Positions 1,029 through 60,864 of a stretch of DNA of 64,000 bases are shown in pieces. The first letter of the stretch is position 1. Every line of letters begins with the position of its first letter. The DNA is taken from NCBI GenBank assembly GCA_031082155.1, contig JAVHLL010000009.1, positions 2,052-66,051 of the forward strand. The letters run 5' to 3'. Source of the stretch: Thermodesulfovibrionales bacterium. Lineage in GTDB: Bacteria; Nitrospirota; Thermodesulfovibrionia; Thermodesulfovibrionales; SM23-35. The position numbers and the translations under genes were made by a program. The notes beneath the pieces were generated by a model. That model did not search any database. It saw only the letters and a list, made by a program, of their open reading frames with translations, and was not told the DNA's origin.

Positions 1029-3867
<2,839 letters not shown>

Positions 3868-3876
3868 GAAAAAGAT

Positions 3877-3906
3877 TTGACAAATTCTCGGTGAATACTT
3901 TATCGT
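3877..3906 (+). promoter_or_regulatory. sigma70-like promoter of the metal-uptake island
   Basis: TTGACA (3877-3882), 18 nt, TATCGT (3901-3906); inverted repeat TGAATA-N14-TATTCA (3892-3917) overlaps the -10. Confidence 0.55.
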
Positions 3907-3960
3907 AAATATATTCAAGCACGAAGTTTGAGTATTTACACACGGATTTTAGACAGTATT

Positions 3961-4013
3961 GAGCCATGAAGGTTGTCACCAGAAGGTGACGGGACGCATG
4001 GCTTTTTTGTTTT
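3961..4013 (+). terminator. intrinsic terminator-like hairpin 1 in leader
   Basis: GAGCCATG (3961-68) pairs with CATGGCTT (3997-4004), then TTTTGTTTT; inner stem GTCACC-AGAA-GGTGAC. Confidence 0.6.
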
Positions 4014-4062
4014 GATTCCATACATGCACTAAGAACAATTTAATTTCTCATTAAAAGACAAT

Positions 4063-4113
4063 AAGCCACGAAGGCACACACCGTGAAGGTGTCCTTTTGT
4101 GGCTTTTTTATTT
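4063..4113 (+). terminator. intrinsic terminator-like hairpin 2 in leader
   Basis: AAGCCACGAAGG (4063-74) pairs with CCTTTTGTGGCTT (4093-4105), then TTTTATTT immediately before the GGAGG RBS. Confidence 0.7.
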
Positions 4114-4122
4114 GGAGGAATC

Positions 4123-4836
4123 ATGGGAGATGCTTTCTGTACACTTGCGGGTGATGTTGCATACTGGGACGGCTATTCCCAATGGTACAAGTTGTGGTTC
4201 GAACATAACAATTATCACGATGAGGTGTTGGAAACCCTCATGGAAATGGTAAAGCCGGGATGGAAGGTTCTTGACGTCGGAGCAGGGAATGGCGTTCTCT
4301 CTTTGCCGTTATGCGCGATTGGATGCGAGGTCAGCGCTCTCGAACCGTCCGCCGGTATGAGAAAACTCCTCTATAAGGAAGCATACAGACGGGGCATTGA
4401 TTGGATAAGGGTCGATAATCGCAGATGGGGAGAATTTCATGATTTCTCTGCCGAATTTAATCTTATCATAGCGTGCAACAGCCTTCATCTGATGCCTCTG
4501 GGGATAGAACATTCATTGAAAAAAATATTTTCTCTTAAGCCCATGAATGTCTTTGTCGTAAGCGAGATACCATTGGAGAATTCGAAAAAACAAATCCTTT
4601 TCGATGATTACGCCAGAGCATTTACAAAAAAGAAAGTGACAGAAAGCTCTTTTGCGTATCATTCCATTGCAGAAGCAATTGAACACTGGTCTTACAAGAA
4701 CAGGAGGGCGCCTGATCCCCGCGAGGAGAGGGAAATCAGATCAAAACTCATCCGGAAACATAACCATTTCTGGATGCAGGACATGGCTTCCGTGCACATG
4801 TACTGGTGGACTCGGCATGTTGAACATGCTGCATAA
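4123..4836 (+). CDS. class I SAM-dependent methyltransferase
   Basis: Motif I VLDVGAGNG, motif II ALEPSAGM; start placed at ATG 4123 after GGAGG. Confidence 0.85.
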   Translation: MGDAFCTLAGDVAYWDGYSQWYKLWFEHNNYHDEVLETLMEMVKPGWKVLDVGAGNGVLSLPLCAIGCEVSALEPSAGMRKLLYKEAYRRGIDWIRVDNRRWGEFHDFSAEFNLIIACNSLHLMPLGIEHSLKKIFSLKPMNVFVVSEIPLENSKKQILFDDYARAFTKKKVTESSFAYHSIAEAIEHWSYKNRRAPDPREEREIRSKLIRKHNHFWMQDMASVHMYWWTRHVEHAA

Positions 4837-4880: not shown

Positions 4881-6266
4881 GGTTCATTCGTAGAAAAGTT
4901 GAAAATAGAGTTGAAGGGTAGAAAAGGTAGAACCGAAGCATAGAAAAAGGAAAGCATCGAATTTCAGCCGCAACTGGTATAGTTTTGTTGTCGAAGACAA
5001 AATAATACCGGAGGAGAAATTCGATGCAATTAGATAGTGTCACGGAACTGCTGGGAATTGCAAACTTTAAAGTAGCGTATATGGTACGTCACAGCGAAAA
5101 TAGGATAGATTTGGTATTAAGACGGGTAGAGGAAAAGCCCTGTGTCTGCTCAGGATGTGGAAAAGTTCACCATACACCTATTCACAGTATAGATACGGTT
5201 ATCATTGAGGATCTGCCCATTAGTGGAAAGCGTGTGTTCCTGCATGTTCCGAAACGGCGGTCGCTCTGTCATGAAGATGAGAAAATCAGAACCGAAGAAC
5301 TTGAGTGGTTGCGAGGGAGAGTTACCCGGAGATTTGCAGAGCAGATCTACCGGCTGACTTCTATCACGACAAATAAGGAAGCCGGCTGGTTTCTGGGGTT
5401 GGATGACGAGAAGGTGTATCGAATAGACAAAGGCATGCTTGAAGAATTATCGTTACAGCGGATTCAGAAGGTTACACCTCCCCGGCATATGAGTGTTGAT
5501 GAAGTAGCGTGGCAGAAGTGGCATAAGTACGTCACGAATGTTATTGATGTCGATAAACGGAAAGTCATTTGGAACCACGAAGGGCGCGGCAAAGCAGTCC
5601 TGGATAAGTTTTATCGGAAGATAGGCAAGAAGGGATGCGGCAAGATACAGGCTGTAGCCAGTGACGGTGCCCGAGGGTTTCTGTCATCCTCAAAAGAGCA
5701 TCTGAAAAAGGCCCTGATCGTACTGGACCATTTTCACGTAAAGAAGTATCTTAACGACGCGGTTGATACTGTCAGGAAAGAAGAACTGAGGAAGGCCAGA
5801 CAACAGGAGAATCAAGAGGTGTCTGCCATCCTGCATTGCAATAAGCGATTTATCCTGATGCAAAACACGGTGACGGATAAGAAAACAGATATACTGAAGA
5901 AGCTCGAATCATTGAACGAAAGAGTCTATCAGGCAATGCTCCTCAAAGAACAGTTTCTCTCGGTTTATTCCGCAGGTAACCGGAAGGATGCCTATACGAA
6001 TCTGAGGGCTTGGATCGTGGCGGCAATAAACTCCCGGATACCATCGTTTGTTGAGCTTGGATACAAGTTCTTCAGGAAACGGCATTATGTCCTGAATTAC
6101 TTCACCTGTAAAATAACGTCCGCCATATCGGAAGGAATCAATAATAAGATAAAGAGGTTAAAGCGCATGGCTTACGGCTACAGAGACGTCAAATACTTCT
6201 TGCTCAAGATACATCAGCATTGCGGACTGTTAAGCCCTAAGCTTTCAACTTAAACACGAAAGAGAG
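4881..6266 (+). mobile_element. ISL3-family insertion sequence
   Basis: Imperfect ~24-bp terminal IRs (GGTTCATTCGTAGAAAAGTTGAAA / TTTCAACTTAAACACGAAAGAGAG); 8-bp target duplication AAAAAAAG at 4873-4880 and 6267-6274. Confidence 0.9.
5024..6253 (+). CDS. ISL3-family transposase
   Basis: N-terminal Cys zinc-finger segment CSGC; SVDE, ASD, DHFHV and SEGINNKIKRLKRMAYGYR motifs. Confidence 0.95.
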   Translation: MQLDSVTELLGIANFKVAYMVRHSENRIDLVLRRVEEKPCVCSGCGKVHHTPIHSIDTVIIEDLPISGKRVFLHVPKRRSLCHEDEKIRTEELEWLRGRVTRRFAEQIYRLTSITTNKEAGWFLGLDDEKVYRIDKGMLEELSLQRIQKVTPPRHMSVDEVAWQKWHKYVTNVIDVDKRKVIWNHEGRGKAVLDKFYRKIGKKGCGKIQAVASDGARGFLSSSKEHLKKALIVLDHFHVKKYLNDAVDTVRKEELRKARQQENQEVSAILHCNKRFILMQNTVTDKKTDILKKLESLNERVYQAMLLKEQFLSVYSAGNRKDAYTNLRAWIVAAINSRIPSFVELGYKFFRKRHYVLNYFTCKITSAISEGINNKIKRLKRMAYGYRDVKYFLLKIHQHCGLLSPKLST

Positions 6267-6378: not shown

Positions 6379-7140
6379 ATGATAATGAAAAGGAATACAA
6401 ACATAGAAATAAACACATACGGATTGGGATACGCGCATGAGCAGCATTACGGAATAATAACGTCGCTTTCCGTCCATTCGATTATCTTCATGCTTTTCTT
6501 TATGCTCTCTCTTGTGAAAAGCGGTAATGACGTAAAAACGTATTATATCCAGTTTACCCAAATGGGGGAAGAAACAGTCCAGGCGCCTCAGTCCGCCAGT
6601 AAGATGAAGAGACCTATAGCTACTGAACCGGAAAGGAAAGTGGTGAGAGAGGAAATCCCGGTGATAAAGGATACTCCTGTTGAAGCGCATGAAGCGGTCA
6701 TCAGGGACAATGCAATTGAAACTCCTGACGTGGTCAAAGTGGCAAGCGCTCCCGAACTTGCGCCACAGCCAGAGGCAATTCACCGGCAGAGCGGGGAGGG
6801 CACAGTCAGTAATGTCGCATTTGCCTCATCCGGCACTTCTGCAATTATCGAAACAGAATTCGGTTCTACCGGAGCTCCTGCTTTTGTAAACAGGCAGATT
6901 CCGGTATATCCCATGATGGCAAAGAAGCTCGGCAAGCAGGGCAGGGTTGTTTTAAGGCTTCATATAAACGAGAAAGGAAGGCTTCTGAATATTGAAGTTG
7001 TTGAACCGGCAGGCTACGGGTTTACGGAGTCTGCCATGGAGGCGGTGAAAATGTCGACCTTTTCCCCCGCGCATGAAAAGGGCGTGAGTGTTGCATCAAA
7101 GGCTTTACTCACCGTCCGTTTCGTGTTGAAAAAGAGCTGA
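6379..7140 (+). CDS. tonB: energy transducer TonB
   Basis: TM anchor with SxxxH (SLSVHS), Pro/Glu-rich linker, C-terminal YPMMAKKLGKQGRVVL domain; precedes exbBD. Confidence 0.92.
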   Translation: MIMKRNTNIEINTYGLGYAHEQHYGIITSLSVHSIIFMLFFMLSLVKSGNDVKTYYIQFTQMGEETVQAPQSASKMKRPIATEPERKVVREEIPVIKDTPVEAHEAVIRDNAIETPDVVKVASAPELAPQPEAIHRQSGEGTVSNVAFASSGTSAIIETEFGSTGAPAFVNRQIPVYPMMAKKLGKQGRVVLRLHINEKGRLLNIEVVEPAGYGFTESAMEAVKMSTFSPAHEKGVSVASKALLTVRFVLKKS

Positions 7141-7162
7141 CGCTAATAAAGGAGAAATATAA

Positions 7163-7597
7163 ATGGAATGGCTTAAGGCAGCTGTCGATTATGGGATTAT
7201 CGGACTCCTGGTTGTTATGAGTGTTATTGCAGTTTCAATCGCGGTCGAGAGGCTACTTGTTTACCGGAACATCAGGCTGGGAGACTTCGGAGACAAGAAG
7301 TCCCTTGAAATAGAGCTCACAAATAAACTGCATATCATCGCAACAATAGGAAGCAACGCGCCGTACATAGGCCTGCTCGGCACGGTGCTCGGCATAATGC
7401 TTACCTTTTACACAATAGGCAAGGAAGGTCTAATCGATACGAGCAAGATCATGACAGGTCTTGCCCTTGCGCTGAAGGCGACGGCTATCGGACTTGTTGT
7501 TGCCATCCCGTCGATTACTTTTTACAACTTTCTTTTGAGACAGGTGAAAGTGTTGATAGCCAAATGGGAGACGGACAATGGAAGAAAAAGAATTTAA
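7163..7597 (+). CDS. exbB: TonB-system energizer ExbB (short type)
   Basis: NAPYIGLLGTVLGIM and ALKATAIGLVVAIP motifs; 144 aa. Confidence 0.95.
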   Translation: MEWLKAAVDYGIIGLLVVMSVIAVSIAVERLLVYRNIRLGDFGDKKSLEIELTNKLHIIATIGSNAPYIGLLGTVLGIMLTFYTIGKEGLIDTSKIMTGLALALKATAIGLVVAIPSITFYNFLLRQVKVLIAKWETDNGRKRI

Positions 7598-7967
7598 CTA
7601 TATGAATGTTATTCCACTGGTGGATGTGATGCTCGTACTGCTTACGATCGTCCTAACCACATCGACATTTATCGCTTCAGGAATGATAAACGTATCATTG
7701 CCGAAGGCGTCTGCCGAGCATAAGGAGATACTGAAAAATCAGACCATATCCATACATAAAGACGGAACACTCTATTTGAATGCTTATTCAATGACGCTTG
7801 ATGAATTGAGAGGAAAAGTGACCATGCTGGACAGGGAGACGCCGATGGTTATCCGTGCGGACAGGGACATCAGGCTTCAGGTATTTGTGGATGTCCTTGA
7901 TATTATCAATAACCTCGGATTCAAAAAAGTTGCGATACAGACCGAAAAGGGAGGTGAGAAAAACTAA
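7578..7967 (+). CDS. exbD: biopolymer transporter ExbD
   Basis: NVIPLVDVMLVLL, VSLPKA, IRADR. Confidence 0.95.
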   Translation: MEEKEFNYMNVIPLVDVMLVLLTIVLTTSTFIASGMINVSLPKASAEHKEILKNQTISIHKDGTLYLNAYSMTLDELRGKVTMLDRETPMVIRADRDIRLQVFVDVLDIINNLGFKKVAIQTEKGGEKN

Positions 7968-8002
7968 AAATTTCAAATTTCAAATTAAAAATTTAAAAAA
8001 TC
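7961..8002. repeat. period-7 AT-rich tandem repeat
   Basis: AAACTAA AAATTTC AAATTTC AAATTAA AAATTTA AAAAATC. Confidence 0.6.
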
Positions 8003-8117
8003 AGGGGCAGGCGTAACCTTGGAGTGGACACTCTGCCCCCGAGGGAAGCGATGCAGTTACAACGCCCCCTTGCTTTATTTTAGCAAAGAAGGGGTAAGAC
8101 AAAAAGGAGGAGTAAAT

Positions 8118-9938
8118 ATGTTTTCCAGAATTTTGTTAGCACTGTTTTTATTAGCTTCTGTTTCAACAGCATTTGCTGAAGAAGCGAAGGAAGCAAAACT
8201 GGAAGAGATAGTGGTTACTGCAACAAAAACGCCGCACACATTGGAAGATGTACCTGTTGAGACTGTCCTGATAAATAGGGAAGATATTGAAGCCTCCAAT
8301 GCAAAAAATGTGTCAGAAGTTTTAAAAGATGTCCCCGGATTTTATATACGGGGAGAGAACGTGCCCGGGTCGTCGTCTTATCTTTCAAGATTAAGGGGAT
8401 TCGATTTTGATAAGGGTTATGGACTTGTCCTTATTAATGGTGAAAGGGTGCTGGGCGGTGGCATGGGCGAGTATGGAATAAGCATTAACCAGATACCGCT
8501 TGAGATGATAGAAAGGATAGAAATCATCAAAGGACCAAGCTCTGTCCTGTATGGGAGCGATGCAGTAGCAGGTGTTGTAAATATAATTACAAAACCGATA
8601 CCTGAAAAACCGTTGTTCACACTAAGCGGAGGATATGGTTCGGAGGAAACATCTTTAGCAAGTATCAGTTACGGTCAAAAAATTAAGGACTTCGGGGTGT
8701 TAATCAGCGCCCAGCATGAGAAATCTGAAAGGGGCCGTTACAGTGCATCGGAAGACGAGTTTGAAGCACGGCATATATTAACAAAACTGTCATATGATAT
8801 CTCAGAAAAAGTTAATGCTTCAGTTGGGATAAATTATGACAAATCAGAGTGGCAGTATCAGATCGATGAAAAACTCAGATTCAGCCCGTCTCTGGAATTG
8901 ACATTGCCCGACACATCTTTCCTGAAGGTTAAAGGATACTGGCACAGGCTCGATATGGACAGTTTCTCACCCGGATATACTCGGCGCTTTGGGGATATCA
9001 CGTATACACAGGCGGAACTGCAATATACCAGACCTTTCGGTCATACACACCTTGCAACTGCAGGGGCTGAATATCTGCTGCGGGATATTGATGCAAGCTT
9101 TGCGGATAAGGAAGATACGGTCTGGAGTTTTTATCTTCAGGATGAGATGACCCTGAAACCTTTTGGTATTGTCATGGGCGGCAGAATAGATAATCATTCA
9201 CTGTATGGGACCGAATTCAATCCAAAAGCAAGTATTATGTGGGAGATTTCCGAGAAAACACGTCTGAGGGCATCAGCAGGAAGGGCGTTCAAGTCGCCGA
9301 CGATTAGGCAGCTCTATGTATTTTTCAAGCACGGGAATTGGTGGAACAGACCTAATCCGGATATGAATCCCGAAGTTTCGTGGGGCTATTCTGCAGGGAT
9401 TGAGCAGGTTATTTCAGACAAGATATCCGCCGGTTTAAGTCTTTTCAGAAATGATGTAAAAGATATTATTGTCGCAGTCAGTACGTCAGAGAAAATAGAT
9501 AATGTGCCCGTCCGTACATGGAAGAACGTAAGAGAGGCATATACACAGGGTATTGAGTTCAGCATAAAGGCCACGGTTATTGAGAACCTTGCCATGAATT
9601 TGGGGTATGCATATCTTGATACCGAGAACAAAGAACTCAATAAGGACCTGCCCTACAGCCCGCACCATACAGTCAATACCGGATTGGATTATGAGATTAA
9701 GCGCTGGCCGGCCTCACTGCACTGGAGGACAACCTATTATTCAGAGGCTTTCAGCAATGAGACAAATACATCCGAAATAAAGGGGTATTCCGTCTCAAAT
9801 CTGAAGATAATCAAAGAAATTACAAAAAACATATCTGCTTCACTGGACATAGACAATATATTCGGCTCTGATTACGGAGAGCCGGATAAAGAATGGCTCG
9901 GACGGGTATATTTCGGCAAATTAACAATTAAAATCTAA
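8118..9938 (+). CDS. TonB-dependent outer-membrane receptor (BtuB/CirA-like; probable Ni/Co or metal-complex uptake)
   Basis: Signal peptide, TonB box EEIVVTAT, plug motif IERIEIIKGPSSVLYGSDAVAGVVNIITK; ATG 8118 after AGGAGG. Confidence 0.92.
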   Translation: MFSRILLALFLLASVSTAFAEEAKEAKLEEIVVTATKTPHTLEDVPVETVLINREDIEASNAKNVSEVLKDVPGFYIRGENVPGSSSYLSRLRGFDFDKGYGLVLINGERVLGGGMGEYGISINQIPLEMIERIEIIKGPSSVLYGSDAVAGVVNIITKPIPEKPLFTLSGGYGSEETSLASISYGQKIKDFGVLISAQHEKSERGRYSASEDEFEARHILTKLSYDISEKVNASVGINYDKSEWQYQIDEKLRFSPSLELTLPDTSFLKVKGYWHRLDMDSFSPGYTRRFGDITYTQAELQYTRPFGHTHLATAGAEYLLRDIDASFADKEDTVWSFYLQDEMTLKPFGIVMGGRIDNHSLYGTEFNPKASIMWEISEKTRLRASAGRAFKSPTIRQLYVFFKHGNWWNRPNPDMNPEVSWGYSAGIEQVISDKISAGLSLFRNDVKDIIVAVSTSEKIDNVPVRTWKNVREAYTQGIEFSIKATVIENLAMNLGYAYLDTENKELNKDLPYSPHHTVNTGLDYEIKRWPASLHWRTTYYSEAFSNETNTSEIKGYSVSNLKIIKEITKNISASLDIDNIFGSDYGEPDKEWLGRVYFGKLTIKI

Positions 9939-9953
9939 AAAGGAGCAGTCATT

Positions 9954-10706
9954 ATGAGAAAAAACAGACGTAAATTCTTTTTGAGCATCTTTTTGGTATT
10001 TGTTTGTTTCTTTGTAAATTCCAATCTGGCAATGGCTCATGATTTATGGCTAAATGTTGATAATCATTATCCGGAAGCAGGAGAAAAGACTACAGTTAAG
10101 GTAGTGTTTGGTCACAATTTTCCATACTACGATATTTTAATCACCAGAGACAAGCTGACCGGCTTCTCTTATCTTTGTCCCGACGGACAAATAAGGGAAG
10201 TTGAAAAGACCTGGGAAGATAAAAAGGAGGAATCCAAAGAAGGTTACGGTTACAGGGCAGGCGCATTGGCAGGTGTTATTACCCTCGATCAGAAAGGGAC
10301 TTATGTGGTTGCCGCTTCCAGAAAAGTAAAAGGGGACCGTGAACATGTGACATCAGAAAAATACGGCAAATCCATAATTATTGCAGGCAAAGGGAATGAA
10401 ATGGTCAGTAAACCATTCGGCCACAGAATCGAGATTGTACCTCTAAAAAATCCTTCGGAGATTAAGCCCGGAGATGAGTTCCCTGTAAGGGTTCTTTTTG
10501 AAGGAAAGCCTCTTTCTACATATGTGTATGCCACCTATGCAGGCTACTTCTCTGAAGATGAACCATTTCCGTTTTTCACAAAAAGCAATGAAGATGGAGT
10601 TGCCTATATGAAGATTCCTCAAGCCGGCACCTGGATGCTTGTATGCAATCATAAAGTCGATTTCTCCGCATCACTGACTTTTAAAATAGCTGAAGGGTAT
10701 AAATAA
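9954..10706 (+). CDS. DUF4198-like periplasmic protein (Ni/Co uptake associated)
   Basis: Signal peptide ending AMA|HDLWL; IEIVPLKNP, VLFEGKPL, GTWML motifs. Confidence 0.8.
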   Translation: MRKNRRKFFLSIFLVFVCFFVNSNLAMAHDLWLNVDNHYPEAGEKTTVKVVFGHNFPYYDILITRDKLTGFSYLCPDGQIREVEKTWEDKKEESKEGYGYRAGALAGVITLDQKGTYVVAASRKVKGDREHVTSEKYGKSIIIAGKGNEMVSKPFGHRIEIVPLKNPSEIKPGDEFPVRVLFEGKPLSTYVYATYAGYFSEDEPFPFFTKSNEDGVAYMKIPQAGTWMLVCNHKVDFSASLTFKIAEGYK

Positions 10707-10727
10707 AGAATATGGAGGAATTACACA

Positions 10728-11435
10728 ATGAAGAAAAAACTGTTTGCAATTATCGTTCTCGTTCTACTTTTGACACAGCCAGCATTTGCCCATCACCTCT
10801 GGATAGAAAAAGAAGGTGATATTTTTAAAGTATTGTGGGGTCATCCACCGGAGACAAACCCCTATGAGCCAGAAAAGTTGAAGGAGGCAAAGGCATTTGA
10901 CAGCAAGGGGAAAAAAGTCCCATTGGCAAGAAAAAATGAAAAGGATGCAATGTATTTGTCTTCAAAATCGGATGTTTCGATGATAGTCGTTTCATTTGAA
11001 GGCGGTTATCTTGTGACCACACCTGATGGAAAAAAGAGACTTGCAAAAAGAGAGGCTGAAAAGTCAGGTTTGCAGATAATAGATTCTGTTTACTCCACAC
11101 AATATGCAAAGGGTTTATTTGTCTGCAGTGAAAGTACAGCAAAGCCTTCAGGCTTACAATTCGAGATTGTGCCGCTCAAAAATCCTTGCAAGGCAAAACC
11201 GAATGAGATGCTTCCTCTCAGAATTTACTTTGATGGAAAACCCCTTGAAGGAGCGATCGTAGAAACAGGAAATCACGCTGAGGCCGGCAGAACTGACAAG
11301 GACGGTAATTTCAGTATAAAAGTGTCTGAAAAGAGCATGCAGATTATCCTAGCAAAATATAGGATTCCAACAAAAGATAACCCTGATGCTGATTTTCTGT
11401 CTTATACCACAGTCCTCTCATGGGTGATGAAGTGA
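10728..11435 (+). CDS. second DUF4198-like periplasmic protein
   Basis: AFA|HHLWIE, WGH, FEIVPLKNP, YFDGKPL, RTDKDG. Confidence 0.8.
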   Translation: MKKKLFAIIVLVLLLTQPAFAHHLWIEKEGDIFKVLWGHPPETNPYEPEKLKEAKAFDSKGKKVPLARKNEKDAMYLSSKSDVSMIVVSFEGGYLVTTPDGKKRLAKREAEKSGLQIIDSVYSTQYAKGLFVCSESTAKPSGLQFEIVPLKNPCKAKPNEMLPLRIYFDGKPLEGAIVETGNHAEAGRTDKDGNFSIKVSEKSMQIILAKYRIPTKDNPDADFLSYTTVLSWVMK

Positions 11436-11887
11436 AGATAATAGTTATCATCCTTGGGGTTATTATATTTACGGCCGGACTTAATTGTCCGGCCTTTTCC
11501 CATTCTGTCCATTATCAGGTCGCAAACAAAGGCATCAGCGTTCGTGTATTCTATGCGGAGGATGATCCCGCAAGTTACTCCTCATACGAGATATTCGGAC
11601 ACGGGGATACGATTCCGCATCAGAAAGGAAGAACAGATAAGAACGGTTTTGTATCCTTCCTTCCCGACAGGCAGGGGAAATGGGTCATCAAGGTATTCGG
11701 CGAATCCGAGCATGGGATGCACGGCGCCCAGATCGAAGTCAACGTCAACGAGAATCTTTTTATGGATTCCTTCAAAAAGCCTTTGGTTGCCAAGTATACA
11801 AAGGCATTTGTGGGGATCAGCTGCCTGCTGGCATTCTTCGGGTTTTTGTCTCTGCTGAAGTCATGGAAGAGAGGCAATACGGAATAG
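11432..11887 (+). CDS. NikL/CbiL-like accessory Ni/Co transport protein with C-terminal membrane anchor
   Basis: AFS|HSVH, GRTDKNGFVSFLPD..GKW..HGMHG, C-terminal TM helix; GTG start overlaps the upstream TGA. Confidence 0.65.
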   Translation: MKIIVIILGVIIFTAGLNCPAFSHSVHYQVANKGISVRVFYAEDDPASYSSYEIFGHGDTIPHQKGRTDKNGFVSFLPDRQGKWVIKVFGESEHGMHGAQIEVNVNENLFMDSFKKPLVAKYTKAFVGISCLLAFFGFLSLLKSWKRGNTE

Positions 11888-11972: not shown

Positions 11973-12296
11973 TCATTTTAACAGATTGCGGTTAGCCAGG
12001 TGCATTTTGATTTTTGAGTGTTCGATAGAGAGATCGATCCACTTTTCAACGAGAGCTTTGAATTTTTTGTAAGTATCGACCTGCTTTTTCAGATCATCAA
12101 CATGGGGAACCCTGACATACTCGGTTTTACTTTTCATCTTATGGGTATAGCTGATCTGATAGAACTCCCATTTTTTATCTTTCGCATTGCGGTATTGTTT
12201 GGTCAGTGACCCTGGCCGCATCTCTCCGATATTCAGCAGGTCCTGCTTAATCTTTTCAATCTGCTTTTCGATTTTCAAAAGACTTTTGTCTGTCAT
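11973..12296 (-). CDS. small basic IS-associated protein (DUF6788-like)
   Basis: MRPGSLTKQY...YQISYTHKMKSKTEYVR pattern; lies inside the IS, divergent from the transposase. Confidence 0.7.
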   Translation of the reverse strand: MTDKSLLKIEKQIEKIKQDLLNIGEMRPGSLTKQYRNAKDKKWEFYQISYTHKMKSKTEYVRVPHVDDLKKQVDTYKKFKALVEKWIDLSIEHSKIKMHLANRNLLK

Positions 12297-12344
12297 ATTC
12301 CTCTGCGTTAATTTTACCAGAACTGTCTTTTTGAGGGTGTATTT

Positions 12345-12382
12345 TATTGCTATTATAGCATATATATGCTATAATAGCAATA
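12345..12382. promoter_or_regulatory. perfect 38-bp palindrome, putative bidirectional promoter/operator
   Basis: TATTGCTATTATAGCATAT|ATATGCTATAATAGCAATA carries TGCTATAAT (extended -10) on both strands. Confidence 0.7.
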
Positions 12383-12405
12383 TCTTGTTCCCTTGGAGGT
12401 TTGTC

Positions 12406-13806
12406 ATGGTTCTTTGGCGTCACTGGCTGTCTGTTGTCGAACAATTACGTCCTGCCTGTTCCCGGATGAGAACGTTTCTGTGGTTGTCTGTTTGTCTTGC
12501 CGGTATGTGCATACGACCGGATATCTTCGGCGTCACCAGTATCGTCAGAGCCTTTGGCCTTAAAGAAGCTTTTTATGACAGACTCCTTGATTTCTTCCAC
12601 TCCCCCGCATTAAACCTCGGGGAGCTTACACGTCGCTGGGTCAATTCAGTTGTGACGATCTTCCCTGGCGTTCTTACTAAAAACGGGCGGCTGCTGATTG
12701 TCGGCGACGGCCTGAAAATCCCAAAATCAGGCAAGAAGATGCCCGGCGTAAAACTTCTCCATCAGGAATCCGATTCCAATACGAAGCCGGAGTACATTAT
12801 GGGGCACTCCTGTCAGGCGGTTGCTATTCTGGTCGGAGCTCTGCAGAGTGTCTTTGCCGTCCCTGTTGCAAGCTGTATCCATGAGGGGCTTGTCTTTTCC
12901 AACAGGGATACGTCAACCCTTCTGGATAAGATGCTTTCTCTGGTTGACTCTCTCGGTCTTCCCTCGTTTTATTTTATCGCTGACGCGTATTATTGCGCTC
13001 GGAAGGTTATGGCTCCTCTGATTAACAAGGGTAATCACCTTGTCTCTCTGGTAAAAATGAATGCCGTTGCCTATATGCCCGCTGATGTTCCCTCAGGCAA
13101 AAGAAAGAAGGGCCGCCCCCCACTATATGGCGAAAAGGTTAAGCTCAGAACTCTGTTTGACAACCCCGACGCTATGCAGGAGGCTCAAAGCCCTGTATAT
13201 GGCGAAACAAATGTGCTCCTGAGGTATCGCTACGCCGCCCTCTTGATCAAAAGAATCGGCATCATGGTGCGCTTCGTGGCCGTTATCCATCCGACCAGGG
13301 GGCGGCGTATCCTGATGTCGACGGACTTGTCTTTATCCCCCCTCGATATTATTGCTCTGTACGGTCTTCGCTTTAAGATCGAGGTCTCTTTTAAACAGGC
13401 TGTCCGTACTATCGGCTCTTATGCATATCATTTCTGGATGAAGGCTATGACTCCTATTCGTAAGGCTTCAGGCGATCAGTACCTGCACAGGAAGTCTGAG
13501 CAATACCGCACGGCTGTCAGAAGAAAGCTTGCTGCGTATCACCGGTTTATTCAGGTCGGGCTTATCGCTCAGGGGCTCCTTCAGTATCTTTCCATTAGCT
13601 TTCCCGATCTCGTTTGGGCTAAGTTCGGCTCTTGGCTCCGTACTATCCGCCCCGGTATTCCCCCCTCGGAGTATGTTACTTCCCTTGCCCTCAGAAATTC
13701 CTTCCCCGATTTTCTGTCAGGTTCCCCTTCTGAGGCTACTTTCGCGAAATTCCTCATCGATAGGATCGATTTCCGTAAAAATAACCCCTTTAGGTTAGCC
13801 GCTTAG
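12406..13806 (+). CDS. DDE transposase (IS4 superfamily, IS701-like)
   Basis: IVGDG, FIADAYY and YGLRFKIE (Y-x2-R-x3-E) motifs; ATG 12406 after GGAGG. Confidence 0.9.
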   Translation: MVLWRHWLSVVEQLRPACSRMRTFLWLSVCLAGMCIRPDIFGVTSIVRAFGLKEAFYDRLLDFFHSPALNLGELTRRWVNSVVTIFPGVLTKNGRLLIVGDGLKIPKSGKKMPGVKLLHQESDSNTKPEYIMGHSCQAVAILVGALQSVFAVPVASCIHEGLVFSNRDTSTLLDKMLSLVDSLGLPSFYFIADAYYCARKVMAPLINKGNHLVSLVKMNAVAYMPADVPSGKRKKGRPPLYGEKVKLRTLFDNPDAMQEAQSPVYGETNVLLRYRYAALLIKRIGIMVRFVAVIHPTRGRRILMSTDLSLSPLDIIALYGLRFKIEVSFKQAVRTIGSYAYHFWMKAMTPIRKASGDQYLHRKSEQYRTAVRRKLAAYHRFIQVGLIAQGLLQYLSISFPDLVWAKFGSWLRTIRPGIPPSEYVTSLALRNSFPDFLSGSPSEATFAKFLIDRIDFRKNNPFRLAA

Positions 13807-59524: not shown

Positions 59525-60229
59525 TCACTGTATTTTACCTAAATATGAAGTCCTTTTCTCTTGCTCAAACCGTTCGATGGCGTATCTGAGCATGGTCCTC
59601 GGCATTGTTTGAGAATGTTCCCGCAGAAACCGTTCTTCGCTCTCCTGATCTCTTTTGCCGATTTCCCGGAGCATCCAGCCGACTGCCTTGTGAATGAGAT
59701 CATGGGGGTCCCTGAGGAGCATTTCCGCAAGGCGAAAGGTGTCTTCAAATTGATTTTGTCTTATGAATGCAAAGGTGGATATGACCGCTATCCTTCTTTC
59801 CCATAGATTGGGAGATTCGGCAAGTCGCCAGAGAATTGCCCGTTCATTTGCCAATAAAAAGGTGCCTAATATTTTTTCTGCGGACAGGTCGACGAGGTCC
59901 CAATTGTTGATATATCGTGTGTTTTCAAGATAAAATTTCACAATATCCCCTCTGTCCTGTTCATGCGCATGCGCATACTGAAGAATGAGGATAAGAAGGG
60001 CAACCAGTCTGTACTCGTGGATTTTACTCGAAATCAACTCCTGCAGATCTTGCAAAGGCAGCGCTTTGTATTTTTTTGCAATTCGCCGTTGTTCTGGAAC
60101 TGGTATCCCGAGGAACCAGTCCCCCTCTCCATATTCACCTTTCCCTGTTTTGAAAAAACGTAAAAGAATATTTGCCCTATCCGGATCGGCTTGTTTCTGT
60201 AAATCTTTTTTTATATGATTCAGTAACAA
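59525..60229 (-). CDS. DNA alkylation repair protein (AlkD-like)
   Basis: [40 protein letters not shown]. Confidence 0.9.
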
Positions 60230-60408
60230 TGAAATCTCTCTTCCGTGTCACTATTAAAGATACTCTACAAGCCGGAATACTCCCTGTCAATAACCGTGCA
60301 TACCATAACCTCATCAAGGGGCTCAACTTATACAACTTATTGACCCGCACAAGATATCATGCTATGCTTTTTGTAAAAAAGAGTTCACTGCAGGGAAGGA
60401 GGAGAACT

Positions 60409-60864
60409 ATGCTGAAAGAATTCAGAGAATTTGCCATGAAGGGAAATGTCGTTGATATGGCGGTAGGAATCATAATCGGTGCAGCCTTTGGGGGAATCGT
60501 AAGTTCTTTTGTTGCTGATGTAATCATGCCCCCTATCGGGCTTCTTTTTGGGAATGTTGATTTTGCGAATCTTTTCCTTGTTCTGAAAGAAGGCGCTGTA
60601 TCACAGCCCTATGCCTTGCTGGCCGACGCAAAAAAAGCCGGTGCAGTAACAATAAACTACGGATTGTTTCTGAACACCGTTGTCAGTTTTCTCATTGTTG
60701 CGCTGTCGGTATTTTTCGTTGTCCGGTCCGTCAATGCTATGAAAAGAGAAAAGGAAGTTCCCCCTCCGGCTCCAACGACAAAGGAATGTCCCTATTGCCT
60801 CTCGGTCATTCCCCTGAAAGCGGTGCGGTGCGCCCATTGTACCTCAGAGCTGAAAAACGTGTAA
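60409..60864 (+). CDS. mscL: large-conductance mechanosensitive channel with C-terminal zinc ribbon
   Basis: [27 protein letters not shown]; tail CPYC..CAHC; ATG 60409 after AGGAGG. Confidence 0.95.

Follow-up and report, generated by a model that had tools for sequence, protein, structure and literature searches.

The window, the whole 64,000-nt stretch of Thermodesulfovibrionales contig JAVHLL010000009.1 that was analysed, carries dnaN, gyrB and orf154 (3403-3867), a 154-residue open reading frame (ORF) without a Pfam family, upstream of a leader that is followed by the gene of an S-adenosylmethionine (SAM)-dependent methyltransferase, an insertion element and a TonB-type uptake cluster (Table 1). 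The leader holds two consecutive copies of a ~50-nt RNA motif, which is very probably a real cis-regulatory RNA. Each copy comprises a small hairpin P1 of the type GCC-AYGAA-GGY and a second hairpin, P2, with an A(N)GAA loop, both of them lying within a long terminator stem that is followed by a U-tract. In both units the 5' arm of P1 is part of the long stem ending in the T-tract, and through this shared arm the small hairpin and the terminator are mutually exclusive, as the first-pass annotation of this DNA had claimed for its two similar units. A G+C-rich stem-loop with a directly adjoining U-tract, the signature of an intrinsic terminator, is thus predicted in both.

The five hairpins drawn in the first-pass annotation are all present in the sequence, its 3962-3974 hairpin adding an A-T pair to P1 of unit 1, and the promoter that it placed in front of them is a sigma-70-like consensus match. 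Hairpin 1, which the computed fold extends to 3905-3939, is possibly an extra copy of the loop module; a similar hairpin with the same loop stands 5' of a unit in another genus (locus L030). The fold of 3905-4130 reaches -74.4 kcal/mol as compared with a mean of -46.3 kcal/mol for dinucleotide shuffles (z = -7.2), and none of the 200 shuffles was as stable. The order U-tract, GGAGG, ATG that terminates the leader is found again in related loci. The word GCCAYGAAGG occurs three times in the window, where 0.36 copies are expected. The third occurrence, GCCATGAAGG at 60433, lies inside an ORF (60172-60864) that we take to resemble the mechanosensitive channel MscL and was judged a chance match.

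Table 1 Features of the leader, of the genes behind it and of the DUF3842-CooT locus of the same genome (G000). Positions are those of the window unless a contig is given.
Feature	Position	Strand	Basis
Sigma-70-like promoter, TTGACA-18 nt-TATCGT	3877-3906	+	Consensus scan, 10/12 matches; consensus match alone
Hairpin 1, 10-bp stem, ACGAA loop, C-G closing	3911-3935	+	Sequence
Motif unit 1	3957-4008	+	Covariance model R1, 47.8 bits, E = 1e-11; fold
Unit 1 P1, GCC-ATGAA-GGT	3963-3973	+	Sequence
Unit 1 P2, GTCACC-AGAA-GGTGAC	3975-3990	+	Sequence
Unit 1 terminator outer stem	3963-3968 with 3997-4002	+	Fold
Unit 1 U-tract (T6)	4003-4008	+	Sequence
Motif unit 2	4059-4109	+	R1, 63.6 bits, E = 1.3e-16; fold; terminator scan
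Unit 2 P1, GCC-ACGAA-GGC	4065-4075	+	Sequence
Unit 2 P2, ACACC-GTGAA-GGTGT	4078-4092	+	Sequence
Unit 2 terminator outer stem	4065-4074 with 4093-4103	+	Fold
Unit 2 U-tract (T6)	4104-4109	+	Sequence
GGAGG ribosome-binding site (4114-4118) and ATG (4123) of the first putatively regulated gene	4114-4125	+	Sequence
SAM-dependent methyltransferase, first gene behind the leader	4123-4836	+	Pfam Methyltransf_25/23
ISL3-family transposase, between methyltransferase and tonB	5024-6253	+	Pfam DDE_Tnp_ISL3, 7e-56
Uptake cluster	6379-11887	+	Pfam
TonB	6379-7140	+	Pfam
ExbB	7163-7597	+	Pfam
ExbD	7578-7967	+	Pfam
TonB-dependent receptor	8019-9938	+	Pfam
DUF4198 protein, first	9954-10706	+	Pfam
DUF4198 protein, second	10728-11435	+	Pfam
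Weak DUF4198-like ORF	11420-11887	+	Pfam
DUF3842 (PF12953), own genome	G000:C55:29053-29439		Pfam, 2.6e-52
CooT, own genome	G000:C55:29472-29651		2.2e-21

Conservation is the best argument against a chance origin of the units. By BLAST, each unit matched leaders in 20 of 60 relatives, these 20 genomes representing 17 genera and, beyond the leaders of the same genus, the two units are the only parts that match. The matches share a common plan, in which an A-rich lead is followed by GCCAYGAAGGY and a short linker, then by a variable C-G-closed stem carrying an (N)NGAA loop, a 3' arm with RTGGC at its end and a U-tract, often with GGAGG and ATG behind it. The covariance model R1, which was built from 26 units with the terminator structure, is strand-specific: the units receive 47.8-72.5 bits on the given strand, and no score on the opposite strand exceeds 34 bits. 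R1 finds the motif in 53 of the 57 genomes and in all 26 of the 26 genera of the window's family, in 64 of 151 genomes sampled from the order (E up to 1e-7) and in 24 of 151 genomes sampled from the phylum, nearly all of which are of the same order. A cross-phylum collection of at least 120 stretches, obtained by an exact-pattern scan with one genome per species, places the motif by record title in Nitrospirota (Thermodesulfovibrionales), many Desulfobacterota, Bacillota (Eubacterium limosum and callanderi, Syntrophomonadaceae, Peptococcaceae, Desulfovirgula) and Spirochaetia; matches in Rothia, Segatella, Hymenobacter and one Proteobacteria record lay inside coding sequence and were dropped as chance.

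The stems of the motif vary while retaining their pairing. In an alignment of 76 units, which is model-fitted and leans towards R1, standard pairs make up 93.8% of the terminator and P2 cells and five pairs have changes in both partners; the observed values were not attained by any of 500 shuffles, and sliding the partners lowered the pairing to 33-55%. Ungapped counts on 110 distinct units derived from the pattern agree with this. Here the Y5:R pair is C-G in 64 units, U-A in 27 and U-G in 16, with 3 mismatches, while the third and fourth pairs of P2 take at least four pair types (A-U, C-G, G-C, U-A and wobbles) and the terminator retains at least seven ungapped pairs in 91 of the 110 units. 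The loop of P1 is the 5-nt AYGAA. The rule used located P2 in 91 units and failed to do so in the other 19, its loops being AGAA (30), ATGAA (11), ACGAA (6), AGGAA (6), TGAA (6), CGAA (4), GGAA (4) and rarer forms. Covariation in the terminator and P2, loops that persist and units recurring across phyla agree with what had been noted for the two units from the window alone, namely stems that differ yet pair and loops that are kept.

Judging from the letters retained, the 5' arm appears to be under constraints other than pairing, and the following features lend indirect support to P1. A Y (C or U) occupies position 11 in 105 of the 110 units, though the pattern left it free, and G9 and G10 are kept while facing non-pairing bases in 30 and 33 of them, respectively, a weak point as the pattern fixed both letters. 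A variant class found with R1, for which the filter allowed two changes in the 11-mer, retains the exact 11-mer in 13 of 13 distinct leaders (14 rows, two from the same place), with A4 standing opposite G or C. In locus L231 positions 1 and 11 and the terminator partner change jointly. In many units P2 is the P1 module with G-C swapped to A-U (ACC-AYGAA-GGU), and the same loop sits on unrelated stems in hairpin 1 of the window and in single NGAA hairpins of other leaders. A leader peptide starting within P1 was rejected, the AUG being ACG in about half of the units. The variant class (L038, L195-L206) also displays, after the U-tract, GCCCC or GCCGC and then GGGAAAGG, which is also the ribosome-binding site, complementary to the terminator 3' arm; GGGGC changes together with GCCCC and GCGGC with GCCGC. 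This complementarity might provide yet another alternative pairing, one coupling read-through with translation.

No Rfam 15 family accounts for the units. There was no gathering-score match in the whole 64-kb window, and a search of 3800-4200 with E up to 10 returned chance-level matches, the best being TEG147 with 21.3 bits as compared with a threshold of 56.1. On 18 other motif loci and L038, two Cobalamin matches and one tRNA match were obtained, none of them on the motif, and the NiCo model matched neither the window nor the leader. The first-pass view of an undescribed RNA without a cobalamin or NiCo riboswitch core is therefore upheld. The idea that the motif is the 3' part of a cobalamin riboswitch was discarded, such an element being missing from the window and present in 2 of the 18 other motif loci, never adjacent to the motif. 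In one Nitrospirota record (L080 2068-2277) the motif precedes CbiM and a separate cobalamin riboswitch precedes a TonB-dependent receptor farther along the same gene row, which places two RNA regulators, for two metals or cofactors, in a single cluster. A repeat element was likewise rejected, because BLAST of the leader against its own genome found the leader itself only and R1 marks just four places there, namely the two units of the window, a variant before a porin-CbiM operon and a plain hairpin. The variant (G000:C51:28621-28680; L038 1507-1560) has an AGCA P2 loop and its own TTGACT/TAATCT promoter, and precedes a 376-residue porin-like ORF and then CbiM/NikM. The plain hairpin with a U-tract (G000:C34:28654-28691, L037) is a weak match of 31.9 bits in the 5' leader of a MAKGTVKWFN gene, presumably that of a cold-shock protein, and marks the score level at which R1 takes ordinary terminators.

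To judge by its genes, the regulon behind the motif is one of metal acquisition. Pfam scans in the cross-phylum loci covered 99 first ORFs and 127 second and third ORFs. Among the former, methyltransferases are commonest (13 of 99), followed by DUF4198 (11), SBP_bac_5 (NikA-like), CbiM and DUF3842 (6 each), Plug (receptor) and Phenol_MetA_deg (5 each), Peripla_BP_2 (4), FmdE (3) and CobN (2); among the latter, CbiM (8 of 127), BPD_transp_1 (7), ExbD and Plug (5 each), FecCD, FmdE, CbiQ, ExbB and CooT (4 each) and PDGLE (3) were found. The families of the uptake cluster of the window also follow the motif in other phyla, and homologues of its methyltransferase were detected by tblastn in 18 of 120 loci. 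In Eubacterium limosum and callanderi the motif precedes a nikBCA-like operon (L100/L224) and DUF3842 is present, and in the loci of the window's own family histidine-rich proteins and a 66-residue EHNNEH protein also lie behind it. The metal-uptake operon announced in the first-pass annotation is thereby specified, by its Pfam families, as one of nickel/cobalt type, and nickel is suggested as the metal because of CbiM/NikM, NikA-like binding proteins, CooT and the histidine-rich proteins. Cobalt or zinc could take its place.

Control of nickel uptake is thought to rest on NikR. The available part of a 2024 metallostasis review names NikR alone for uptake and the NiCo riboswitch for efflux (PMC11672702). 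NikR_C (PF08753) gave no match in the window's genome, the positive control detecting it in 5 of 14 genomes. In the 151 genomes of the order sample the motif occurs in 64, NikR_C in 37 and both together in none (Fisher p = 4e-11, uncorrected for relatedness), and this strict exclusion suggests the same cellular role for both. Since families f2, f4, f6 and f8 hold motif and NikR genomes side by side, always as different genomes, the pattern arose more than once. In 15 NikR genomes homologues of the 66-residue regulon gene share a contig with nikR at a distance of 3-4 kb, and the same genes are therefore found beside nikR in some lineages and behind the motif in others. The motif seems to take the place of NikR, and it is likely that it governs the acquisition of nickel (or nickel and cobalt) instead of that protein.

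The distribution of DUF3842 follows that of the motif. DUF3842 is encoded by 105 of the 151 genomes, by none of the 37 with NikR and by 63 of the 64 with the motif, the missing one being an assembly of 210 contigs that also lacks a CooT match; nine of the 151 have neither DUF3842 nor NikR. Families f6 and f8 each have one DUF3842 genome, which is also their one motif genome. Five of five DUF3842-positive genomes that were negative at 1e-7 carry weaker true variants behind promoters, two before a CbiM-type start and the others before other ORFs in the stretches displayed. Of five NikR genomes, two gave R1 matches, which spanned only 33-38 nt and did not exceed 31 bits. Outside the phylum DUF3842 is present in five of five motif genomes, NikR being missing in four and represented in the fifth by a marginal 21.9-bit match. 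In a 61-genome sample of a Bacillota order, taken around Eubacterium callanderi, DUF3842 occurs in 44 genomes and NikR in two, both DUF3842-negative; R1 matches were obtained in 15 genomes, all DUF3842-positive, and in none of the 17 negatives (Fisher p = 0.006). No DUF3842 match was found in the 14 control genomes.

In the window's genome the DUF3842 gene is directly followed by that of CooT (L188 1076-1498 and 1501-1689), an adjacency repeated in the coordinates of many genomes. Both belong to a same-strand run (G000:C55:29053-30417; L188 1076-2446) that continues with a 216-residue cysteine-rich ORF bearing CxxCxxCC near its N-terminus; R1 with filters off had no match in the L188 locus. 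In 6 of 99 loci DUF3842 is the gene immediately behind the motif, and in four CooT is one of the next two ORFs, an arrangement that looks like autoregulation, and in Acidaminobacter the DUF3842 gene lies directly 5' of the motif. DUF3842 has 3,457 relatives at E up to 1e-10, with DGQGGGIG, LGTN, KGAxGENAI and EPLPH as invariant motifs. Searches with its sequence returned no solved structure below E = 0.01 and, in the Atlas, DUF3842 clusters only. The AlphaFold model is confident (pLDDT 85.9), and the modelled fold would be neutral on RNA binding. DUF3842, perhaps rendered nickel-sensitive via CooT, is put forward tentatively as the best candidate for a factor reading the motif. CooT as the discriminating factor was rejected, being uninformative, and orf154 as a regulator was set aside; it has no Pfam family, and its N-terminus looks by eye like a lipoprotein signal. 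The 66-residue EHNNEH protein fared no better, as it occurs in 117 of 151 genomes including NikR families, in none of the 15 genomes of f11 (13 of which have the motif) and was not found in the window's genome.

How the switch is oriented can be judged from a second expression platform. In four loci of different genera P1 and P2 lack a terminator arm and immediately precede the start codon of a TonB-dependent receptor gene. All four variants are intercistronic, no promoter being apparent in the stretches covered, and their P2 5' arm and loop are complementary to the Shine-Dalgarno (SD) region, exactly so in L025 and L029, with letters that change together. Minimum-energy folds display P1 as a 5- to 7-pair hairpin in all four, the anti-SD:SD helix in three and P2 in the fourth; as the z-scores of these short folds are not significant, the argument rests on the complementarity. 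Judged by these pairings, the OFF state would break P1 in the terminator type and P2 in the SD type. P1 together with P2 is the sole structure common to both platform types, and the two-hairpin state is therefore probably the bound, ON state. A conserved core with interchangeable platforms, here a terminator type and an SD-sequestering type (four loci), is a riboswitch-type arrangement. In the variant class and in five further genomes promoters lie only 10-25 nt 5' of the motif, so that no upstream antiterminator is involved and the unit would be autonomous. By the same token the weak P1 would have to be stabilised by something.

The leader would then be a double attenuator made of two copies of an undescribed cis-regulatory motif and working by factor-dependent antitermination, a reading with about an even chance of being right. 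Each copy would fold in two ways, either as the long intrinsic terminator, the default OFF state, or as P1 plus P2, in which P1 holds the terminator 5' arm. When nickel is scarce, a trans-acting factor would grip the two like loops and lock P1 and P2, allowing RNA polymerase to read through into the methyltransferase gene and the TonB, receptor and DUF4198 genes; when nickel is present the factor would be released and both terminators would act in series. That factor would most likely be the DUF3842 protein encoded beside the nickel-binding CooT (G000:C55:29053-29651), and the system would fill the role of NikR. Extended to many anaerobes, in Nitrospirota, Desulfobacterota, Bacillota and Spirochaetota at least, the proposal that nickel is sensed through DUF3842- and CooT-dependent RNA antitermination on pairs of A(N)GAA loops, and not through NikR, falls somewhat short of an even chance.

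Several observations weigh against this interpretation. The minimum-energy fold of 3905-4130 consists of the two long terminators, the small P1 hairpins being absent. The P1 pairs are invariant in standard units and display almost no covariation of their own, so that covariation speaks neither for nor against P1. The pattern behind the cross-phylum collection fixes GCCAYGAAGG, GAAGG and TGGCTTTT, and their invariance in that set is therefore by construction. As the sampled genomes are related, the Fisher values overstate the evidence, and some of the Bacillota R1 matches look like plain terminators (L226). CooT is present in 146 of the 151 genomes whatever the regulator and thus does not discriminate. 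The DUF3842 model is a Rossmann-like alpha/beta fold with only generic neighbours (TM 0.53 or less, E of 1e-3 or more), its invariant motifs would also suit an enzyme or a small-molecule binder, and the protein may be a regulon member or a maker of the ligand. The metal is read from gene families: a Neisseria DUF4198 protein is described, in the available part of the report, as a periplasmic zinc capture protein (PMC12663993), and CobN, tetrapyrrole methylase and FecCD genes also lie behind the motif. In the window itself the ISL3 element now stands between the first putatively regulated gene and the uptake cluster. Finally, of 24 public runs found, all in the form of assembled contigs, four RNA runs yielded a single 175-nt contig over 3740-3901 that leaves the leader uncovered and has no bearing on termination.

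The strongest rival is a protein-free riboswitch, in which P1 and P2 form a small aptamer for a ligand or a metal ion, similar to the tandem-hairpin guanidine-II class or to a terminator-embedded aptamer, and DUF3842 is a regulon member or ligand maker; it is rated as rather unlikely. It would explain why the motif travels with different operons in at least four phyla, is self-contained behind its own promoter and has two platforms around one core, the usual mark of a riboswitch. It would also agree with the fact that no candidate factor is encoded in cis at every locus (DUF3842 in 12 and CooT in 15 of 120 loci by tblastn) and with the enzyme-like appearance of the DUF3842 invariant motifs. 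The purine runs (GAAGG) could give N7 ligands to nickel or cobalt, as outlined for the NiCo riboswitch in the available part of the metallostasis review (PMC11672702). However, the structure shared by the two platforms is probably the ON state, and a Ni2+ ligand would thus turn uptake on, the wrong sign for a replacement of NikR; because the recognised state is ON, a riboswitch ligand would have to signal the want of nickel. The 3-bp P1 is much weaker than the terminator with its seven or more pairs in most units and would need strong stabilisation, while the like loops and the extra loop arrays (hairpin 1, single NGAA hairpins) resemble multi-site protein binding, and the motif occurs without DUF3842 in that one fragmented genome only.

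The promoter and unit 1 could also constitute a gene of a ~95-nt small RNA (~3912-4008), acting in trans as a decoy that titrates a loop-binding factor and leaving unit 2 as the sole attenuator. Unit 1 indeed has a promoter, a 5' hairpin and a strong terminator and lacks a ribosome-binding site, and tandem pairs with a ribosome-binding site behind the second unit only were counted in 10 of 135 loci (strict pattern). This is very unlikely, however, as the units point in the same direction and the 50 nt that separate them yielded no second promoter, a single unit immediately followed by a ribosome-binding site is the usual arrangement elsewhere, and any attenuator yields a terminated leader transcript as a by-product.

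It is highly improbable that the units are ordinary terminators of the gyrB-orf154 transcript, without regulation and alike merely through the common shape of terminators. They do lie 90-240 nt behind the orf154 stop at 3867, same-strand genes (ABC/ECF transporter types, read from their N-termini) end shortly before a unit in several related loci, and weak R1 matches also fall on plain hairpins such as those of the cold-shock-like leader and L226. In contrast, orf154 is separated from the units by a promoter. The 11-mer and the loops persist across phyla in unrelated genomic contexts, and it is with the genes 3' of it that the motif is associated. In addition, the motif avoids genomes with NikR, accompanies DUF3842 and has terminator-less variants. 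Equally hard to credit is a reading in which GCCAYGAAGG and CCNGAAGG are half-sites of DNA operators for a repressor, DUF3842 or another, just 3' of the promoter. The motif does lie ~10-25 nt from the -10 box in many loci and DUF3842 excludes NikR, a DNA binder, but the words lie at distances differing by more than 10 nt, the intervening stem covaries so that pairing is kept, strand specificity and the U-tract are RNA features, and the SD-type variants, lacking an evident promoter, covary with the Shine-Dalgarno region.

The logic of the leader is closest to that of ANTAR systems, where, according to the available part of one account, a pair of small hairpins with similar loops cannot form together with an intrinsic terminator, protein binding prevents termination and several units may occur per operon (PMC8934654). 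Like the targets of EutV, NasR and AmiR, both units of the leader display tandem hairpins of which one overlaps the terminator. In contrast, the A(N)GAA loops of the motif are C-G-closed tetra- and pentaloops, whereas ANTAR targets have hexaloops with A1 and G4; the hairpin overlapping the terminator is the first in the motif and the second in the ANTAR target, and the candidate reader DUF3842 is unrelated to ANTAR. A search for ANTAR (PF03861) in the 100% complete window's genome found nothing while being positive in five of five other genomes. An AmiR/NasR/EutV-type target of unusual loop size, which would share the principle of two hairpins with one using terminator sequence (PMC8934654, in the part available), is thus scarcely credible in view of 4-5-nt loops with G at position 2 or 3 and a genome without an ANTAR domain, and ANTAR had already been set aside in the first-pass annotation on account of the loops.

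NikR is a protein that binds DNA operators. It resembles the motif in its target genes, which are nik/cbi transporters and TonB systems, and in the presumed signal, and the available part of the metallostasis review names it as the nickel-uptake regulator (PMC11672702). In contrast to NikR, which acts on DNA, the motif would act on RNA, via termination or SD masking. The NiCo (czcD) riboswitch, as described in the same part of that review, is an RNA-level response in nickel/cobalt homeostasis that is common in anaerobes (PMC11672702). It is built on a four-way junction that binds metal and turns efflux genes on, whereas the motif is a 50-nt hairpin pair before uptake genes. In guanidine-II (mini-ykkC), two small hairpins with like conserved loops (ACGR) are joined by a variable linker, and in the thiS (HMP-PP) aptamer the sensor is hidden inside the terminator. 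The motif resembles the former in its hairpin pair and the latter in its terminator-embedded sensor, and differs from both in loop sequences, closing pairs and gene sets, with no Rfam match at E up to 10. The available part of a 2025 review of RNA-binding antiterminators describes HutP as activated by a small ligand and a divalent metal and as having two sites in the terminator region of its own operon (PMC12591593). By analogy, the proposed reader of the motif would be a metal-linked antiterminator with two sites, unlike HutP in that the latter is a hexamer that reads single-stranded NAG triplets and responds to histidine. The Pfam scan of the candidate reader names DUF3842 only, a relation to HutP not having been looked for.

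Nickel is never mentioned in the available part of the review of RNA-binding antiterminators (PMC12591593), and a search of main texts, with supplementary motif lists outside its scope, returned no paper on this motif, on a nickel-uptake riboswitch or attenuator, or on the function of DUF3842. The RNA family is probably new, and so probably is an RNA-binding regulator, the attenuation logic itself being known. Hydrogenases, CO dehydrogenase/acetyl-CoA synthase and further key enzymes in the carbon and hydrogen metabolism of anaerobes are supplied by nickel import. If the DUF3842-dependent mechanism is true, a large group of sulfate reducers, syntrophs, acetogens and Thermodesulfovibrionales would regulate nickel uptake at the RNA level, genomes without NikR would be explained, and DUF3842, a family of more than 3,400 uncharacterised proteins, would gain a testable role. 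As a metal-responsive protein-RNA antitermination system it would be without precedent, DUF3842 would receive its first function, and the compact 50-nt switch would be a possible nickel-responsive part for the engineering of anaerobes.

Some further observations concern the surroundings of the leader and the regulon. The ISL3 element, which lies outside the system, may have disconnected leader and uptake genes in this strain, and a second DDE transposase (12187-13806) is found 3' of the DUF4198 genes. A perfect 9-nt inverted repeat connects 3817-3825, at the end of orf154, with 3924-3932 in the 3' arm of hairpin 1. The RNA-library contig, recovered in two runs of one sample, ends its match at 3901 and continues with letters matching the loop and 3' arm of hairpin 1, a junction that may be an assembly effect of this repeat. 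The 66-residue helical protein with WxEHNNEH, common in motif operons and without a Pfam family (L015:1285-1485 (-), L018:1304-1504 (-)), is possibly a metal-binding module. It often lies within open frames of ~320-390 residues and may therefore be fused there, and the N-terminal EHNNYH of the methyltransferase of the window resembles its EHNNEH by eye.

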